From Escherichia coli (GTDB taxonomy: Bacteria; Pseudomonadota; Gammaproteobacteria; Enterobacterales; Enterobacteriaceae), in NCBI RefSeq assembly GCF_001677475.2, contig NZ_CP015229.1: DNA of 64,000 nt; one strand, written 5' to 3'. The first letter of the stretch is position 1, and each line of letters opens with the position of its first letter. Positions 1 to 7,820 of the stretch are shown piece after piece. Position numbers and translations under genes: made by a program. The notes under the pieces were generated by a model. The model did no database searches. It saw only the letters and a program-made list of their open reading frames with translations, and was not told the origin of the DNA.

Positions 1-1832
1 AGAACCGCCGCAGCCACAAACGCGGCAACAATCAATCCGACCGGACTGAACAGCGCCCCGATAGCGCCACCCAGCAACGAGATGGAACCTGTTACCATTC
101 CCCATAGTGCTGGCAGCACCCTGACGACATTCATTGATCCGGTCAGGAGAGAAAAACCAAGACGTAACGTGGCCAGTTTCCCGTGAAGCACGCCAATAAC
201 CAGCGACAACGAGCCAATCGTTGCAGTCATTGCCAGCAACGCACCGCCTGCTATCAGTAGCTGGCGCGTCAGTGCCGGATGGGCCTGCGCCAGCGCCGTC
301 ACCCTTGATACCACCCGCGTGAGCCACTGCGTGACAGAACGCAGCGGGCCGTCAATCAGATCTGCAATGCGGATGCGCAACCCTTCCCATGCACTGCCGA
401 GTGATTTCAGATCGCCATCAAGGTTGTTGGCCATAACCTTTGCCGTGCGTTCAGCCTCACCGCGTGCGCCTTCAAGTTCTTTTCTCAGTTTGGGTAAGGA
501 ACCGTCACCTGCCGCATCAACGAGGGCCATAAACGATGTGAAAGCCTCTTCCCCGGCGATGTCCTTAAAGAAGGATACCCGGTCAACTTCCCCGTATTTG
601 CGGGTGGCTTTATAAAGGTCGGCCAGCACATCCTCCATCGGGCGCATTTTGCCGTTCGCGTCAGAAACTGCCACACCAAGCTCTTTCAGCGCCTCTGCTG
701 CTGCCTTTGGCGGTGATGCCAGACGAGCCAGGCTGGCACGCATTGCCGTCCCGGCATCACTCCCTCTGATACCCATATTCGCCAGCACGCCCGCCATCGC
801 TGCGGCCTGCTCCAGCGATATTCCCAGCTTACCCGCCACCGGACCTGCATATTTCATGGTTTCGCCCAGTGCGCGAAGGTCAGTGTTGGTACGGGTAAAC
901 GCTGCGGTGAGTGTGTCACCAACCCGGTCCATCTGGTCAGCAGAAAGGCCGAACTGCGTCAGGATATTTGAGCCAATATCCGCCGTCTCGCCGAGATCCA
1001 TACCGCCAGCCGTTGCCATGCTCAACACGCCGGGAAGCGCAGCCTGAATGGCCTGCGGTGTGAAGCCAGCCATTGCAAGAAATGCCTGTCCACTGGCGGC
1101 ATCGCCTGCGGTGAACTGCGTTTCAGAGCCAAGTTTTAACGCCTGCTCACGCAGCGCCTTAAACTGTGGGCTGTTCTGGTCGATTCGCGTCAGTGCCTGA
1201 ACGCGGGACATCTCTTTCCCGAACCCGATCGCAGGCTGCAAAAAACGCCCGGCAGCATAGCCGCCAGCCGCTGCCGCACCAATTGCCAGCGCACCACCTG
1301 TTTTCAGTTTTCCAGCAGTTTCCTGCGCGCGCGAATACCGCTCACGCGCCCGCGTTACACGCGCAAGCGTCTGCCGTTCGCGTTCAAGCTGGTTGTTGTA
1401 CTGTTCGGTGCGTCTGATGGCCTGCTGGATGGTGTTATCGCTGCCTGTCAGGGAAATGCCGTGGCGTTTCAGCTCTCCGCCAAGCTCCCGCATTTTCTGA
1501 ATTTCCCGTGTGCGCGATTCATTCAGGCGTTCAAGCCGGGTGCTTAACTGCTGCATCAGCTTTTGTTGTTTTTCGCTGAGCACTGTACCCGTGCGTTGTA
1601 ACTGATTAAGGGCGTTAAGCTGGCGTCGTGCTTTCACGATGCCCGCATCCGCTTTACTGACAGCGTCACGGGCGCGCTCAAACGAACGCGCCTGACGCTC
1701 GAGATTTTTGATCGCCCCCTGCGTTCGCTGGATGGAGTCACCAAACTGCCCCATCAGGCGGCGGGCGTTTTCGGCAGGCCGGGTCAGCCTGTCAACGGCG
1801 CTGAAAGCGACCCGGATATCAAGAGTCTTCAT
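1..1832 (-). CDS. Phage tail tape measure protein (P2 gpT-like), 3' end truncated by window edge
   Basis: Open minus-strand frame from ATG at 1832 (alternative ATG 1841) to position 1; translation MQTMKTLDIRVAFSAVDRLTRPAENARRLMGQFGDS... is coiled-coil rich and sits directly downstream of E/E' as in P2. Confidence 0.7.
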   Translation of the reverse strand, partial: MKTLDIRVAFSAVDRLTRPAENARRLMGQFGDSIQRTQGAIKNLERQARSFERARDAVSKADAGIVKARRQLNALNQLQRTGTVLSEKQQKLMQQLSTRLERLNESRTREIQKMRELGGELKRHGISLTGSDNTIQQAIRRTEQYNNQLERERQTLARVTRARERYSRAQETAGKLKTGGALAIGAAAAGGYAAGRFLQPAIGFGKEMSRVQALTRIDQNSPQFKALREQALKLGSETQFTAGDAASGQAFLAMAGFTPQAIQAALPGVLSMATAGGMDLGETADIGSNILTQFGLSADQMDRVGDTLTAAFTRTNTDLRALGETMKYAGPVAGKLGISLEQAAAMAGVLANMGIRGSDAGTAMRASLARLASPPKAAAEALKELGVAVSDANGKMRPMEDVLADLYKATRKYGEVDRVSFFKDIAGEEAFTSFMALVDAAGDGSLPKLRKELEGARGEAERTAKVMANNLDGDLKSLGSAWEGLRIRIADLIDGPLRSVTQWLTRVVSRVTALAQAHPALTRQLLIAGGALLAMTATIGSLSLVIGVLHGKLATLRLGFSLLTGSMNVVRVLPALWGMVTGSISLLGGAIGALFSPVGLIVAAFVAAAV

Positions 1833-2357
1833 TGTCTGCATTCCCGCTGCGAAGTGCCGCCCGCTCACGCCAGCTAACCACTTCGCCGGGCGTCATCATG
1901 AAGATTTCGGCGGGCGACCAGTTAAAAATGGCGGCGATATCTGCCACCAGATCTTCGATGTGCTCAAAGCACACCAGGGTAATTACGCTGCCGTCTCCTG
2001 CACGCTCTTCGCGCCAGAGTCTGGCTCGCTCATAAAATTTACAGCCACAGCGCACAACTGAATAAAATCGCGTGACGACATTTTTTTAATCATCACTTCA
2101 TCCAGTCGTGGCGAGGTCACGCGAGGCAACAGCGTAAACATGGTATCCGCTTTCAGATTCAGCACATCAGACAGCGACAGACCACGCAGGGATCCAGCCT
2201 GCTCAATAGCCCCGGTGATCTCCACATACGTGATTTTTTCGCCACCACGCTCAATTGGTCGGGTCAGTTTTACGCCACGTTCGACAGCCATATCCTCACC
2301 TGCCGTCACATCATCCGCCACGGTGTTATTCCGGGTTTCAGTATCGATGTCTTTCAT
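1819..2357 (-). CDS. Predicted E+E' fusion made by -1 programmed ribosomal frameshift
   Basis: The E' ORF is in the -1 frame relative to E; a candidate slippery heptamer AAATTTT lies at 2034..2040 (minus-strand sense) inside the overlap. Confidence 0.45.
1983..2357 (-). CDS. Phage tail assembly chaperone (P2 gpE-like)
   Basis: 124-aa ORF between the tube gene and the tape measure gene; an overlapping -1 frame ORF (1819..2055) fits the E' extension. Confidence 0.65.
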   Translation of the reverse strand: MKDIDTETRNNTVADDVTAGEDMAVERGVKLTRPIERGGEKITYVEITGAIEQAGSLRGLSLSDVLNLKADTMFTLLPRVTSPRLDEVMIKKMSSRDFIQLCAVAVNFMSEPDSGAKSVQETAA

Positions 2358-2412
2358 CAGTTGTCTCCTTTTCAGTCAGAGGCGACGCACTGCGCCGCCT
2401 GCATATTACTTA

Positions 2413-2925
2413 TCAGCCAAGCCCAAGCGCGGAACGGATACGGTCAGGCACAATGTCCTTGCCGTCCTTCCGGTAGATGTGGTTCAACAGGTCGATTTCC
2501 CACAGCGGGCGATCGTTAACGCTCAGCTTGTAGTAGGTGTTTTTGACAGCGTAAGTGTGTGATGTGGCTTCGCCCTGTTTGGCTTCCCCCATATCAATTT
2601 CCGTCACACGCCCACGCATCTCGATTTCATACAGATCGCTTTCTGCATCGGTGTAGTATTCACCCGCAAAACGCAGCAGCGTGCCGTCAATCGTGCCGCC
2701 ATATTTAAGGAACAGCGCACGAACAGCTCCCCCCATGACAAAACTCGCATCAAGCGCGGAGTCGTCCAGACCGAGATCAATACTTACCGCCCCCATCATG
2801 CCACCACCACGATAGCTGTCGGTTTTGCGCGTCAGTTTGGGCGGCGTGACGGATGTCACTTTACCCACTTCGTTTTCACCATCCACAAACAACGTAAAAA
2901 AGCGAAGATGTTTTGGTACAGCCAT
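2413..2925 (-). CDS. Phage tail tube protein (P2 FII-like)
   Basis: 170-aa ORF; motifs TPPKLTRK, YRGGGMMG, DLGLDD, MRGR, EIDMGE, KQGE resemble P2 FII; its ATG overlaps the FI stop (ATGA). Confidence 0.85.
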   Translation of the reverse strand: MAVPKHLRFFTLFVDGENEVGKVTSVTPPKLTRKTDSYRGGGMMGAVSIDLGLDDSALDASFVMGGAVRALFLKYGGTIDGTLLRFAGEYYTDAESDLYEIEMRGRVTEIDMGEAKQGEATSHTYAVKNTYYKLSVNDRPLWEIDLLNHIYRKDGKDIVPDRIRSALGLG

Positions 2926-4109
2926 CAGGCACCTCCCAGCACCGCAAATGCGGGACCAAAGAATTCATCAGTAAACGTCTGGTAAAGCTCCATGTCTTCC
3001 AGCGGGGGAACAGGCGTATATTTGTAGCGAATACGCACACGTCCCTGACGTAAATTCGTGGTGCCGTTATCCACCACGTCATACCAGCACTCCGCGCCAA
3101 TCAGTTTCCCGGCAGTAACCAGCGAATCCAGTTTTGCCCTGATGGCACTGATAACATCCTTCACGTTCGCAGGCGTCAGTGGACTGTCGATGGTTTCAAA
3201 CTGCGCTTCCGCAATTGAATCAGCCAGCACCTGTGCGGTTCGGGTATACACCTCAAAGATGTAGGCGTTCGTTTCCGGTGTGCGGTTGCCCCAGAAGCGG
3301 AACCCGTTGCGACGAATAATGGTCGTGATTTCTTTGTTGTTGAGGCTGTTGGCATCGCTGTCTTCGGCCTGCAACGACCAGAACACATGCCTCGACATCC
3401 CCAGCACATTTTTAACCGGAACGTTGGACAGTGATTTGTGCCATCCCTGCTCATGGTCAATGTACGCACGAAGGCCGCACGCATAGGCAGGCGCGGGGAA
3501 CGTTTCGTTTTTGCCACTTTTCGGGTTGTAGGCGATGAAGTCTGGCCATAAGAGCATCACCTCACGTTCGTTGAATTTCTGGCGGTAGGTAATTGCCTCG
3601 GCCATCGTGTTACAGCCATGACATGAGGCATACACAAACGCGCGCAGTTTACCCGCAATCACGCACAGGGATTTTGTCACCGCCTCCGTGTCCAGCTCCG
3701 GCGCGGCCAGAATACGCGGACGGTATCCGATGCTTTCATCCTGCTCTGCAACAAGCAGCGCATACATCCCCGTATAGCTGCCGTCAGATTCAGAACCACC
3801 GATAACCAGTTGATCCTGCGTTTTTCCGTCTTCTTCTTTGTGTTCAGCCACGCGAACGACGATCACCTTTGTGCTCACCTGGTCTGCGATGGCCTTAAGC
3901 GCACGATAAAGCGTCCCCGTTGTTCCGCATTTTCCCAGCACGTCATTGACGCGGGTCAGCAGTGTGGGCTTGTTCAGCGGGAACAGCTCCGCGTCCGCAT
4001 CATCTGCCGTTGCCACGATACCGATAACACTGGAATCAACATCATTAATCGCTGTTACCAGGTCGGTACTTTCCGTAACACGGGCACCATGAAAACGAGT
4101 TTCACTCAT
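2925..4109 (-). CDS. Phage contractile tail sheath protein (P2 FI-like)
   Basis: 394-aa ORF; motifs DADAELFPLNKP, AYRQKF, WPDF, DHEQGWHKSLSNV, IRRNGFRFWGNRT, YTRTAQV, YKYTPVPPLE match the P2 FI sheath as I recall it. Confidence 0.9.
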   Translation of the reverse strand: MSETRFHGARVTESTDLVTAINDVDSSVIGIVATADDADAELFPLNKPTLLTRVNDVLGKCGTTGTLYRALKAIADQVSTKVIVVRVAEHKEEDGKTQDQLVIGGSESDGSYTGMYALLVAEQDESIGYRPRILAAPELDTEAVTKSLCVIAGKLRAFVYASCHGCNTMAEAITYRQKFNEREVMLLWPDFIAYNPKSGKNETFPAPAYACGLRAYIDHEQGWHKSLSNVPVKNVLGMSRHVFWSLQAEDSDANSLNNKEITTIIRRNGFRFWGNRTPETNAYIFEVYTRTAQVLADSIAEAQFETIDSPLTPANVKDVISAIRAKLDSLVTAGKLIGAECWYDVVDNGTTNLRQGRVRIRYKYTPVPPLEDMELYQTFTDEFFGPAFAVLGGA

Positions 4110-4266
4110 AGCTTCAGCCCCTTGTATCCGTTAAATGATTCGGCAACAATCATCACCCACCACGCGCGTAATCTCACCCCTGCGCCGTTCTCCCGCCACG
4201 GCGACAACAAAAAGCAGTAATCCCCTCCGCACGCACATGCGACCATGCCGCACAGGGAGGGAACAG

Positions 4267-5376
4267 ATGACCGACACCACCATGCAATTGCTCAGTCAGG
4301 GCACAGACCCCGTGAAAATGCCGGATTTTGATATTCTCGCGGAGGGTAAAACGCTGTCAGGCGTGGCAGAGCGCCTGATGAGCCTGTCACTGACCGACAA
4401 CCGGGGATTTGAGGCGGACCAGCTCACCATCACGCTGGATGATGCGGATGGTCAGTTGCAGCTACCGCCACGGGGCGTGCGCCTGACGGTTCTCATTGGC
4501 TGGAAAGGAGAACCGCTGACAGAAAAAGGCACTTACATTGTTGATGAAATCGCTCACGAAGGACCGCCGGACAGGCTGACTGTTTCAGCCAGAAGCGCAG
4601 ATTTTCGGGATGAATTTAACGTTAAACGTGAGGTGTCCTGGCATGATGTGACCGTTGAGCGTGTGGTATCCGCCATCGCTCATCGGTACGGTCTGAAACC
4701 GCAAATCAGCGAAATGCTGATGGATATCGAAATCGACCACGCCGACCAGACCGAAGAAAGCGACATGTCCTTCCTTACGCGCATGGCGGAAATGCTGGGC
4801 GCAATCACCACGGTAAAAAGCGGCAATCTGTTATTCATCATGCCAGGTGGTGGCGTGAACGCACAGGGCCAGCCGTTGCCATCGTTCGCCATCACACGCA
4901 GCAGCGGCGATCGCCATCAGTTCCGCATTGCTGACCGCGAGGCGTATACGGGGGTGCGCGCCTACTGGCTTGATCTTAACTATGGGAAAAAGAAAAAAGT
5001 CAGCGTGAAACGCCGCAAACCACCCAAACCGAAAAAGGAGAAAAGCAGCAGCCGCGAAGGTGACTATATGGAAGGTGCGGAAGGCAACGTGTTTGTGTTA
5101 CGCAAGACTTATCAGAACGAGCAGGCAGCAAGACGCGCAGCGGCGGCAAAGTGGCAGCAGCTACAACGCGGAGCCGCATCATTTTCCATCACGCTGGCAC
5201 GTGGACGCGCAGAACTCTACCCCGAAATGCATGGCACAGTAACAGGATTTAAAAGCGAGATTGATAATCAGGACTGGATTATTGCAAAAGCCGAGCACAC
5301 CATTGATAACAGCGGCTTTACCACGCAGCTTGAGCTTGAGGCAAAAATCCCGGAATGGATAGCAGAAACAGAGTGA
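4267..5376 (+). CDS. Phage late control / tail protein D (P2 gpD family)
   Basis: ORF track 4135..5376; probable start at ATG 4267 preceded by GGGAGG; motif SLSLTDNRGFEADQLTITLDDADGQL is typical of the Phage_GPD family. Confidence 0.75.
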   Translation: MTDTTMQLLSQGTDPVKMPDFDILAEGKTLSGVAERLMSLSLTDNRGFEADQLTITLDDADGQLQLPPRGVRLTVLIGWKGEPLTEKGTYIVDEIAHEGPPDRLTVSARSADFRDEFNVKREVSWHDVTVERVVSAIAHRYGLKPQISEMLMDIEIDHADQTEESDMSFLTRMAEMLGAITTVKSGNLLFIMPGGGVNAQGQPLPSFAITRSSGDRHQFRIADREAYTGVRAYWLDLNYGKKKKVSVKRRKPPKPKKEKSSSREGDYMEGAEGNVFVLRKTYQNEQAARRAAAAKWQQLQRGAASFSITLARGRAELYPEMHGTVTGFKSEIDNQDWIIAKAEHTIDNSGFTTQLELEAKIPEWIAETE

Positions 5377-5502
5377 ACAACCTCGACGTTTTATTTAATA
5401 TACAAAAGCCTTCTGGACACGGTAAGGCAAGAACAAGGATAGAAGATCCTTTACAGTCAGAGTTACAGGTTATACCTGTAAGCAAAAACAAAGGCATATA
5501 TT

Positions 5503-6261
5503 ATGTTCAGTTTGTTTTCGTTAACTGCCGGAGCAAATGTGCGCTGGCATGATTTACCTGGTCAGGGTATTCCTGTTGTTTTTATTCATGGACTTGGCTG
5601 TTCCTCTTCTTATGAATATCCACGGGTTGTTGCAGATCCTGTATTTGGTGGACAACGAGCGATATTGATAGATCTCCCTGGATATGGATTCAGTGATAAG
5701 CCTAAAGGATTCGATTACAGCATATCCCATCAAGCTAAGGTTGTTATTGAAGTAGTAGAAACCTTAAATCTCTCACAGTTCCATATTTATGGTCACAGTA
5801 TGGGGGGAAGTATTGCGATTGAAGTAGCCAGACAACTACATGAGAGAACAAGAAAGCTTGTGGTTTCTGAGCCTAATTTTCACTCTGGTGGAGGTACCTA
5901 TAGCCGTAAGATAATAGAGAAGCCAGAAGCAGAGTTTATTTCGCATATATATAATGAATTACTGGAGTGTGAAACATCCCCATGGAAAGGTGAACTCCAG
6001 AATGCAGCCCCATGGGCAATATGGCGAGGAGCCAAAAGTCTGGTTGATGGAACCACTCCATCATGGCGAGATATATTCCTTAATCTGTCCTGTTCACGAA
6101 CACTAATTTTTGGCGAACAATCATTGCCAGATAATGATTTCCAGTATATAAAAGAATCAGGAATATCTGTTGCAATAGTGCCAAACGCCGGACACTCCAT
6201 GTCATGGGAAAACCCATCAGCACTGGCCGAAATTTTACACACAGAATTTTATAAAGAGTAA
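5503..6261 (+). CDS. Alpha/beta-fold hydrolase (probable esterase/lipase-type serine hydrolase); AT-rich cargo gene
   Basis: 252-aa ORF; N-terminal VVFIHGLG, nucleophile elbow GHSMGG, C-terminal NAGHSMSW candidate His; codon usage visibly more AT-rich than the flanking phage genes. Confidence 0.6.
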   Translation: MFSLFSLTAGANVRWHDLPGQGIPVVFIHGLGCSSSYEYPRVVADPVFGGQRAILIDLPGYGFSDKPKGFDYSISHQAKVVIEVVETLNLSQFHIYGHSMGGSIAIEVARQLHERTRKLVVSEPNFHSGGGTYSRKIIEKPEAEFISHIYNELLECETSPWKGELQNAAPWAIWRGAKSLVDGTTPSWRDIFLNLSCSRTLIFGEQSLPDNDFQYIKESGISVAIVPNAGHSMSWENPSALAEILHTEFYKE

Positions 6262-6621
6262 AATTGCTCATATATAAATGTTGTTCCATCAGTATCATAT
6301 TATCAAAGGGCAGGAGGTAAATTTATCTTCTGCCATTTCACTCAAATCAGGCGATTTGATAGCACGCATTTTATGAGATGCTTGAAACTTATAAATATAT
6401 AAGAACGTCTTGTTATCAAAATATATAAGCACAGAAAGCAAACACTTTCCCATAATTACTTTGTTAATTTTTTGCCTGATAATAAATGGCATAATAAACA
6501 GTATCAGAGAGTATTTTTATTAATAATTAAACACACATTCCTCAATCTGACATGACTGTTAGTTGGCATATTTACAAATACAATTTAAAATAACGACAGC
6601 AAAACGTTAAGGGAGGTCGCT

Positions 6622-6882
6622 ATGTTCCGTTGTCCGCTTTGTGGCGCATCTGCCCGTATCCGCACCAGTCGTCCAGAAAATGATTCAAACACCGTACGGC
6701 AAAAGTATTACCAATGTAACAACCTGGAATGCGGCGTATGCTTCTCAACACTGGAAGCTTTCCATAAATTCACATCGAAACACGCCTCCGGCGCTCACTC
6801 TTCAGAAAGTATCCCGTGGCATGAACTGCCAGCTTCCCACAGAGGAAACAATCAGATGAGTTTGCCCTTACCTCAAAATTAA
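6622..6882 (+). CDS. Ogr/Delta-family zinc-finger late transcription activator
   Basis: 86-aa ORF MFRCPLCGASARIRTSRP...YYQCNNLECGVCFSTLE; the C-x2-C...C-x4-C pattern and MF-CPLC-RTSR motif match P2 Ogr; RBS AGGGAGG upstream. Confidence 0.75.
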   Translation: MFRCPLCGASARIRTSRPENDSNTVRQKYYQCNNLECGVCFSTLEAFHKFTSKHASGAHSSESIPWHELPASHRGNNQMSLPLPQN

Positions 6883-6942
6883 CAGGCAGAATTGCCGGAG
6901 TAACAAAAAAGCGATAGATTACGCGCGGGTGCCTTTCGGCTG

Positions 6943-7206
6943 ATGGTCGGAGGGAATACCCGAAGGCCAGATGTGGAAAGGCCCCGGAAAACATCTCTGT
7001 TTAACCGAGGCCCTAACCGCATTACCTTGACAAGTGAAAGGTTAGCGCCTCTCCGGAAAAGGAGCAAGTGCTATGTCGCAAAAATCGCTTACAGCCATCA
7101 CGTTCTGCGTGACGGCAATCCTCATCATCTGGATGCTACACGGTTCGCTGTGCGAAATACGGATGAGCTTCTGGGGAGCGGAGTTTGCGGCGTTCTTACA
7201 GTGTAA
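6943..7206 (+). CDS. mok-like overlapping reading frame (translational coupler for hok)
   Basis: 87-aa ORF in a different frame that overlaps almost all of the hok-like ORF, as in hok/mok/sok loci. Confidence 0.35.
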   Translation: MVGGNTRRPDVERPRKTSLFNRGPNRITLTSERLAPLRKRSKCYVAKIAYSHHVLRDGNPHHLDATRFAVRNTDELLGSGVCGVLTV

Positions 7207-7213
7207 GCAGTAA
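7073..7213 (+). CDS. Hok/Gef-family type I toxin (46 aa, single transmembrane helix)
   Basis: Hand translation ATG 7073 to TAA 7211: MSQKSLTAITFCVTAILIIWMLHGSLCEIRMSFWGAEFAAFLQCKQ; hydrophobic N-terminal helix followed by SLCEIR and AAFL motifs; RBS GGAG upstream; too short for the ORF track. Confidence 0.6.
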   Translation: MSQKSLTAITFCVTAILIIWMLHGSLCEIRMSFWGAEFAAFLQCKQ

Positions 7214-7335: not shown

Positions 7336-7482
7336 GTGTCCTCACCGACTTGAAACAGTGATCAGACTATAAGACAAAGCCCACAATGTAGCTGGCTTAC
7401 TCCCCTCCCCCCCCACACTAAATGTGGACACATCGTGGAATGAAGAGATATAAAACATTATAAATCAATTGGTTATTGAAAG

Positions 7483-7508
7483 AAAAAAGGCCGCAGAGCG
7501 GCCTTTTT
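7483..7508 (-). terminator. ihfA intrinsic terminator (hairpin flanked by A/T runs on both sides)
   Basis: aaaaaaggccgcagagcggccttttt immediately downstream of the ihfA stop. Confidence 0.55.
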
Positions 7509-7520
7509 AGTTAGATCAGA

Positions 7521-7820
7521 TTACTCGTCTTTGGGCGAAGCGTTTTCGACCCGGCTTTTTAACTTCTGCCCGGGTCTGAAGGTCACCACGCGCCGTGCTG
7601 TAATGGGAATATCCTCGCCCGTTTTCGGGTTACGTCCCGGGCGTTGATTCTTATCACGCAGATCGAAGTTACCAAAACCAGAGAGTTTCACCTGTTCGCC
7701 GTTTTCCAGAGCGCGACGGATCTCTTCGAAAAACAGTTCAACCAGTTCTTTGGCATCCCGCTTGCTAAGCCCAAGCTTATCAAACAGATATTCTGACATT
7801 TCAGCTTTTGTAAGCGCCAT
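7521..7820 (-). CDS. ihfA: Integration host factor alpha subunit
   Basis: 99-aa [91 protein letters not shown]... Confidence 0.95.

Follow-up and report, generated by a model that had tools for sequence, protein, structure and literature searches.

The variable cargo sites of P2-like phages are rich in defence genes (PMC9122126; 10.64898/2026.02.27.708500; 10.1101/2024.10.15.618418). In the hotspots described so far (PMC9122126, 2022; the iLund4u preprint 10.1101/2024.10.15.618418; 10.64898/2026.02.27.708500), a short interval between core genes is either empty or filled with one of many unrelated genes of foreign composition, which may lie in either orientation. In this work, we describe a site that fits this pattern, namely the junction between tail gene D and the late activator gene ogr in a P88-like prophage of Escherichia coli. 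The DNA analysed is a stretch of 64,000 nucleotides from contig NZ_CP015229.1, which is referred to as the window, and all positions are those of the window unless another locus is named. At this junction, the window carries a gene for an alpha/beta-fold serine hydrolase of 252 amino acids (aa) at 5503-6261 on the plus strand, exactly the open reading frame (ORF) that had been picked out beforehand from the sequence alone (the original prediction). Neither ogr nor the hydrolase is mentioned in the three sources cited above. Comparison with related phages shows it to be a cargo cassette of one gene, acquired horizontally, in a site whose content varies. For the gene product we prefer, with moderate confidence, the reading that it would be a lone, constitutive small-molecule esterase or lactonase that works in the cytoplasm and benefits the host cell.

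The variability of the site is evident from the related phages. The gap between D and ogr is 42 bp in phages P88_4B11 and Chuche, and the same interval in phage 500465-2 carries a 340-aa gene on the opposite strand. To extend the comparison, 5426 complete E. coli genomes were searched with the empty D-ogr-hok stretch. Matches came from 1634 of them; the backbone occurs in about 30%. Among the matched rows, a spread sample contains 22 empty junctions, 9 with inserts of 0.97-1.29 kb, and 10 more in which the homology ends at the D stop codon. Inserts are thus found in 9 of the 31 fully matched junctions, the other 22 being empty. One examined junction of the type in which homology ends at D has an interval of 1.97 kb, and further junctions appear to hold larger inserts. 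All of the inserts that were opened are single genes: besides the hydrolase, they encode a 221-aa protein (plus strand), a DUF2971 protein (minus), a 340-aa protein (minus), a 274-aa protein (minus), and a 500-aa PIN-domain protein (plus). The last of these matches PIN_4, the 340-aa cargo gives a weak HEPN match, and the DUF2971 cargo matches the PADLOC candidate PDC-S31. No domain is detectable in two other cargos of the site, the 274-aa protein among them. A comparison of the D-ogr interval across P2-like prophages had been proposed together with the original prediction, and its result is that the hydrolase is not present in most P2-like phages.

When the window is compared with phages that have an empty site or another cargo, the left-hand homology of the backbone breaks off at 5381-5392, and the right-hand homology sets in at 6556-6586. 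These endpoints delimit a hydrolase cassette of about 1.2 kb (about 5382-6580). Its composition differs from that of its surroundings. The coding sequence (CDS) of the hydrolase has a GC content of 0.414, and of 0.296 at third codon positions (GC3), compared with 0.54 and 0.59 for D, 0.54 and 0.60 for the sheath gene, and 0.48 and 0.46 for ogr. The 360 bp that follow the gene (6262-6621) have a GC content of 0.30, with no ORF conserved on either strand and no Rfam match. The original prediction had stated that the codon usage is more AT-rich than in the flanking phage genes and that some 360 bp of very AT-rich non-coding DNA follow, and both statements are borne out by these values. It had also classed the gene as a horizontally acquired moron without a structural role, and this class is upheld by the foreign composition and by the junctions of related phages, which are empty or otherwise occupied.

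The protein itself is, on profile and structure comparison, a complete member of the alpha/beta-hydrolase superfamily that belongs to no characterised subfamily. Among Pfam families, it matches Abhydrolase_1 (E 3.9e-20) and Abhydrolase_6 (E 1.3e-16, residues 25-243), and its PHROGs label is 'esterase/lipase'. An AlphaFold2 model based on 33 homologues has a mean predicted local distance difference test score (pLDDT) of 94.1 and a predicted template modelling score (pTM) of 0.93. In this model, the strands and helices follow the order of the canonical alpha/beta-hydrolase fold, with a helical cap at residues 132-194 after strand beta-6, and a Foldseek search with it gives template modelling (TM) scores of 0.65-0.81 to solved esterases, lactonases, and dehalogenases. 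Since the beta-strands start at residue 2, there is no signal peptide, and the enzyme is predicted to be cytoplasmic. Of the Pfam and structure searches that had been suggested to place the hydrolase in a subfamily, both confirmed the superfamily and the fold, but neither led to a characterised subfamily.

The residues expected of a serine hydrolase are in place. The GHSMGG motif (residues 97-102) forms the nucleophile elbow, in which Ser99 (G97-H-S99-M-G101) lies directly after strand 93-98, and His231 (NAGHSMSW; GHSMSWENP) follows strand 222-226. Both residues, which the original prediction had named as nucleophile and candidate histidine, are invariant in the 33 homologues. Glu123, in the motif VSEPN directly after strand 116-122, is also invariant in the 33 sequences, whereas E205 and D210, which lie at the canonical acid site after strand 198-204, both vary. 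Further invariant residues are Cys33, Tyr37, Tyr39, Asn125, Trp161, Arg175, Trp188, Trp235, and Glu236. Among relatives at 30-45% identity, S99, H231, and E123 are still invariant or nearly so. In a profile alignment with the haloalkane dehalogenase DhaA, Ser99 falls on the DhaA nucleophile Asp106 and Glu123 on the catalytic Glu130. The serine-hydrolase residues align, as the original prediction had required. The triad is likely Ser99-His231-Glu123, with the acid placed after strand beta-6 by conservation and alignment, and the catalytic acid is most likely Glu123 rather than an Asp after strand beta-7.

According to the preferred reading, Ser99 on the nucleophile elbow would attack the carbonyl of an ester, lactone, or thioester, His231 would serve as the base, and Glu123, positioned as in enzymes of the DhaA/LinB type, would orient the histidine. 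The hydrolase would act alone. The host cell would gain by detoxifying or using an ester or lactone, the prophage would gain indirectly, and there would be no contribution to the virion. Transcription of the gene could come by read-through from D, probably ending at a hairpin at 6309-6334, after which ogr would be expressed from its own promoter at 6563-6591.

The history of the family bears on this reading. The family is small: at E 1e-30 or better it comprises about 90 clusters (50% identity). Its proteins, of about 250-265 aa, stand alone. The older members occupy a fixed chromosomal position just downstream of ortT, and one low-GC branch became mobile. Chromosomal copies make up the first of two groups of homologues. 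They show 55-62% identity and occur in Enterobacter, Leclercia, Lelliottia, Klebsiella oxytoca/michiganensis, Raoultella, Kosakonia, Pluralibacter, Pseudocitrobacter, and others. In 22 species-representative genomes, ortT, which encodes a GhoT/OrtT small membrane toxin, ends 70-90 bp upstream of the hydrolase homologue on the same strand, and the pair lies inside a conserved patD...srfC neighbourhood (for example, at 3741-3911 and 4001-4747 of locus L038). Several genomes carry two copies of ortT. The adjacency to ortT was considered as a clue to function and rejected: it may reflect common descent only, given that synteny extends over the entire patD...srfC region, and ortT is missing from the mobile copies. 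The resident chromosomal copies have GC3 values of 0.56-0.69, which match their hosts, as against 0.30 in the phage copy.

The second group is a single low-GC mobile clade, at 71-97% identity, that is nested among the chromosomal copies. In a Salmonella enterica contig (L003, 2177-6853), a hydrolase gene with 79% identity is the sole passenger of a 4.68-kb Tn3-family transposon, next to tnpA and tnpR. This transposon has 38-bp inverted repeats (97% identity) and occurs at two insertion points in one Salmonella plasmid backbone (also in L004-L006). Members of the clade are also found on the large Salmonella plasmid pRSE40 and beside an integrase in a genomic island of Yersinia canariae. In Enterobacter sp. 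638, a copy lies at the end of an unrelated prophage, behind the gene for tail-fibre assembly. In addition, the chromosomes of Citrobacter and Serratia have single-gene insertions between ordinary genes such as pgaA, ampC, and PTS genes. What these different contexts have in common is only the CDS with about 20 nt of upstream sequence. Among more distant homologues (35-45% identity), no conserved partner gene or operon was found, and the neighbours are unrelated each time. This lineage was captured independently by a Tn3-family transposon, a plasmid, two unrelated prophages, and an integrase island, and such repeated capture suggests that the gene confers a trait that can be selected directly, possibly the inactivation of an ester or lactone compound.

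Within E. coli, the cassette is rare. It is present in 5 of the 5426 complete genomes, in every case between D and ogr, and the prophages that carry it use two attachment sites, ihfA and a tRNA cluster near pgsA. The hydrolase was absent from 50,697 phage records in a nucleotide search, and a protein search of phage records gave a single 29% hit. Two IMG/VR contigs contain it and are colinear with the window. In NCBI, the exact protein is entered as 'alpha/beta hydrolase [Escherichia coli]', and its 90%-identity cluster comprises 57 distinct sequences on many E. coli contigs. The isolates behind four of the five complete genomes with the cassette came from laboratory or wild mice; these mouse-derived carriers may represent one lineage or may reflect a niche-specific benefit.

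A gene of this rarity could be a neutral passenger that was picked up by illegitimate recombination and helps neither the phage nor its host in E. coli. This explanation would account for the few carriers, perhaps of one lineage, for the lack of an identified promoter upstream, and for the fast drift of the spacer behind the gene. It is difficult to reconcile with the phage-borne copies themselves, in which the reading frame is intact in five of five and omega is 0.09-0.43, values that indicate maintenance by purifying selection. The size and spread of the 90%-identity cluster also speak against it. So does the fact that mobile elements of at least four kinds captured the gene lineage independently, a pattern that favours a selectable trait. 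We regard neutrality as most unlikely.

A second possibility is a single-gene function against phages or other mobile elements, in which the hydrolase, expressed from the prophage, would block superinfecting phages. Its substrate might be a lipid, an acylated host factor, or a small molecule required by the invader, or it might instead act by harming the cell upon infection. The genomic setting invites this idea, because variable cargo sites of P2-like phages, to which this single-gene site belongs, are rich in defence genes, and because PIN_4, a weak HEPN match, and DUF2971 occur among its other cargos. The foreign composition and the patchy occurrence in E. coli are also in its favour, and one structural neighbour of the model, at Foldseek rank 14, is a membrane phospholipase A. 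However, non-defence cargo is also found in hotspots of the P2 type, and the protein is a bare catalytic domain of 252 aa with neither a sensor or regulatory domain nor a partner gene. None of the defence families of PADLOC-DB 2.0.0 matched it at E up to 1. Moreover, the family consists mostly of syntenic chromosomal genes across many genera, which is unusual for immune genes, and its mobile copies have genes for metabolism, efflux, and beta-lactamase as neighbours and do not lie in defence islands. An anti-phage role is therefore, in our judgement, rather unlikely. Its strongest form, in which the gene would stand for a new type of action by one enzyme against phages or mobile elements, located in an uncharted single-gene hotspot, with the mobile captures reflecting selection for immunity, we consider unlikely as well, and a little more so.

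The same observations favour the esterase or lactonase reading over an immune role: the lack of a PADLOC match, of a sensor domain, and of a partner gene, the syntenic chromosomal ancestry, and the position of the mobile copies outside defence islands. They also disagree with one element of the original prediction, which had singled out the hydrolase as the best candidate in the window for an undescribed system. A lone single-domain enzyme without a partner gene or a defence model match, from a family that sits mostly at a fixed syntenic position on chromosomes and whose mobile relatives lie among ordinary metabolic genes, does not bear out that suggestion. Several points nevertheless weigh against the esterase or lactonase reading. 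The literature gave no substrate or phenotype for any member of the family, and searches of it for the hydrolase gene, for alpha/beta-hydrolase defence genes, and for a link between ortT and the hydrolase returned nothing relevant. A benefit to the host would require expression in the lysogen, yet no sigma-70-like promoter is predicted in the 126 bp upstream of the gene. The role proposed for Glu123 is based on conservation and on the alignment with DhaA. Finally, other cargos of the D-ogr site carry domains of conflict systems (PIN_4, weak HEPN, and DUF2971 with its PDC-S31 match), which by association raises the chance of an anti-phage role.

The DNA around the gene gives some indication of how it might be expressed. 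Upstream lies a 5' leader of 121 bp (5382-5502, plus strand) that is unique to the hydrolase-carrying prophages and 92-100% identical among their copies; homology of this leader to the other mobile gene copies begins only at 5482-5488. It contains a weak ribosome-binding site, AAAGG, at 5490-5494, and a perfect 15-bp palindrome, ACAGGTTATACCTGT, at 5469-5483, 20 nt 5' of the start codon of the hydrolase gene. The palindrome is kept in comparison loci L001 and L002 and could bind a protein or form a small RNA hairpin. A scan of 5377-5502 found no sigma-70-like promoter and no terminator-like site. Without a terminator between D and the hydrolase gene, read-through transcription from D is possible.

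On the other side of the gene, 48 nt past the stop codon, there is a terminator-like hairpin (6309-6334, plus strand) with an 11-bp stem and a 4-nt loop, followed by AUUUCAC. It folds at -16.3 kcal/mol (z = -6.3), and no shuffled sequence equals it. The hairpin is retained in L001 and L002 with an altered stem sequence and is followed there by UUUUAC. The U-tract behind it is weak in the window, and a simple terminator scan made no call; the short U-run nevertheless makes it a plausible terminator.

This arrangement suggests a further explanation, namely that the hydrolase is a helper of lytic growth that is co-transcribed with D from a late promoter and serves late in infection instead of in the lysogen, for example in counter-defence, in remodelling of envelope lipids, or as an aid to lysis. 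The gene is on the same strand as D and 126 bp downstream of it, with neither a terminator-like site nor a sigma-70-like promoter in between, and, with the hairpin as its end, D and the hydrolase gene would form one late transcription unit. An uninformative search for a promoter dependent on Ogr, 5' of the hydrolase gene or D, used TGT-N12-ACA, the dyad of Ogr-dependent late promoters: the prophage part of the window has zero exact matches, and matches over the whole window are fewer than expected by chance. Nearly all related phages lack the hydrolase, and its homologues are chromosomal genes or passengers of transposons and plasmids, for which late phage timing is meaningless. In addition, the protein has no signal peptide or membrane segment by which it could reach the envelope. 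A role in lytic growth is in our view very unlikely.

The AT-rich DNA behind the hairpin includes a non-coding spacer at 6346-6555 (GC about 0.28-0.30) that gave no match to the other fetched loci. Among the hydrolase-carrying prophages, the spacer is only 69-73% identical and contains indels, whereas the CDS is 93-97% identical. This fast divergence is at odds with the synonymous divergence of the adjacent CDS, which is only 0.05-0.23, and could be due to a mosaic origin or to hypermutable DNA. A minus-strand ORF of 65 aa at 6295-6492 was considered as a hidden partner gene and dismissed, as it is absent, different, or frameshifted in the other hydrolase-carrying prophages. A structured RNA in these 360 bp was likewise rejected: Rfam gives nothing at E up to 1, and the terminator-like hairpin alone stands out.

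The right end of the interval (6556-6621, plus strand) is the putative promoter and ribosome-binding region of ogr, with a -35 element TTGGCA at 6563-6568, a 17-nt spacer, a -10 element TAAAAT at 6586-6591, and the ribosome-binding site AAGGGAGG. In a sequence scan, TTGGCA-17-TAAAAT at 6563-6591 is the top sigma-70-like site of the region, with 10 of 12 positions matching. The -10 element and all of the sequence 3' of it are common to phages with an empty site, and a -35-like motif, TGTTAGTTGG(C/A)A, is common to the right end of a different cargo in locus L019.

The genes on both sides of the cassette belong to a backbone that, by its similarity to known phages, is that of a P88-like prophage (Xuanwuvirus, Peduoviridae) integrated adjoining ihfA in E. 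coli. The host assignment follows from the ihfA-pheST segment, which is 98.8-99.0% identical to E. coli genomes. From the start of the window, the gene order is the tape measure gene, E, tube, sheath, D, hydrolase, ogr, and hok/gef, followed by the chromosomal genes ihfA, pheT, and pheS. Gene D (4267-5376, plus strand), the left flank of the cargo site, is 95-98% identical at the nucleotide level to D of P88 and of other Xuanwuvirus and Gemsvirus phages. Its start is placed at 4267 rather than 4135, because the annotated start of P88 maps there and a ribosome-binding site, GGAGGG, is present. The tail genes for the tube (2413-2925) and the sheath (2925-4109) are on the minus strand, and in this part of the window (1-5376) the sheath, tube, E, and tape measure genes all lie on the strand opposite to D. 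Phage P2 has a single FI-FII-E-T-U-D operon, unlike the layout seen here. Since D is opposite in strand to the other tail genes, it must have its own promoter in the P88-like group, in 4110-4266.

The right flank of the site is ogr (6622-6882, plus strand), a zinc-finger activator of late genes, for which the homologous loci are annotated as an ogr/Delta-like zinc finger family protein. The final backbone module ahead of the prophage end and ihfA is the hok/gef toxin gene (7075-7213) with its sok-like RNA region (6927-7213 in all, plus strand). The match of this module to the Rfam family sok (RF01794) is 48.4 bits, which is below the gathering score of 59. Hok/Gef is annotated at the equivalent position in loci L001, L002, and L018, and the module is kept in all P88-like phages examined. 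Immediately beyond the prophage end, a match to the enterobacterial small RNA STnc540 (Rfam, 42.8 bits against a gathering score of 38) at 7427-7579 on the minus strand overlaps the 3' end of ihfA. Elsewhere in P88-like phages, locus L025, a prophage of E. coli O26, has a serine O-acetyltransferase gene at 519-1091 of the locus, between the genes for tail-fibre assembly and a tail protein, and this is a second cargo position of the group.

Finally, the hydrolase can be compared with enzymes whose function is known. A characterised subfamily was sought by NCBIfam models, by sequence against the Protein Data Bank (PDB), and by Foldseek against PDB and AFDB50, and was not obtained: the matches are generic or uncharacterised, with about 20% identity to solved structures. 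The closest of these structures are generic esterases, the Est816 and AidH esterases that degrade acyl-homoserine lactones (AHLs), aryl esterases, and DhaA, and the closest AlphaFold DB entries are all uncharacterised. No curated NCBIfam cut-off was reached, the best score being 66 bits against a cut-off of 307. The equivalogs tested were MenH, PcaD, RutD, BioH, BphD, HsaD, and the alpha/beta-fold macrolide esterases; the macrolide esterase model gave 20 bits against 420, and the dehalogenase models gave 50-55 bits against cut-offs of 241-466.

The AHL-degrading esterases Est816 and AidH (PDB 5EGN and 4G5X) share the fold, the size, and the Ser-His catalytic residues with the hydrolase. Est816 is the top full-length profile match in PDB (E 3.5e-23, residues 15-255) and is near the top in Foldseek. 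The identity is only about 20-22%, however, and nothing here points to lactone substrates. Est816 also has a Ser where the hydrolase has Glu123 ('lsSGt' against 'laEpn'), which means that its acid residue sits elsewhere. In the haloalkane dehalogenases of the HLD-II group (DhaA and LinB; TM 0.76-0.80), the acid is a Glu right after strand beta-6, as is E123, which lies 24 residues past the nucleophile position and aligns with E130 of DhaA. The HLD-II nucleophile is an Asp, in contrast to Ser99, and the halide-binding Asn and Trp of DhaA (N41 in HGNP and W107 in DW) align with Leu31 and Met100 of the hydrolase. Lacking both the Asp nucleophile and the residues for halide binding, the hydrolase is not a dehalogenase. 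The best single-sequence matches are to CumD, BphD, and MhpC, which are meta-cleavage-product (C-C bond) hydrolases, and to MenH, PcaD, RutD, and BioH. These matches cover the N-terminal half, including the nucleophile elbow, but end at about residue 121-131 and reach 26-66 bits against cut-offs of 172-466; the cap domain and the C-terminal half of the hydrolase are unrelated to this group.

The locus can also be compared with known mobile elements. A passenger gene of a Tn3-family transposon is accompanied by transposase, resolvase, and terminal inverted repeats, none of which accompanies the window copy. A transposon origin of this copy was accordingly rejected, as there are no terminal inverted repeats around the cassette and the CDS alone is common to the window and the Tn3 copy.

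If the preferred reading is true, the hydrolase is one more accessory enzyme of a temperate phage and of modest importance. Whatever its role may be, the D-ogr junction of P88-like prophages is a compact and readily cloned single-gene cargo site, nearly all cargos of which lack a known function, and it is a practical place in which to seek new phage-host conflict genes. It differs from the published hotspots of P2-like phages in its position between D and ogr of P88-like phages, in that its cargos here are all single genes, and in that the hydrolase does not count among recognised defence genes. Its family is uncharacterised; accessory hydrolases in the cargo hotspots of P2-like phages, as a kind, are already known.

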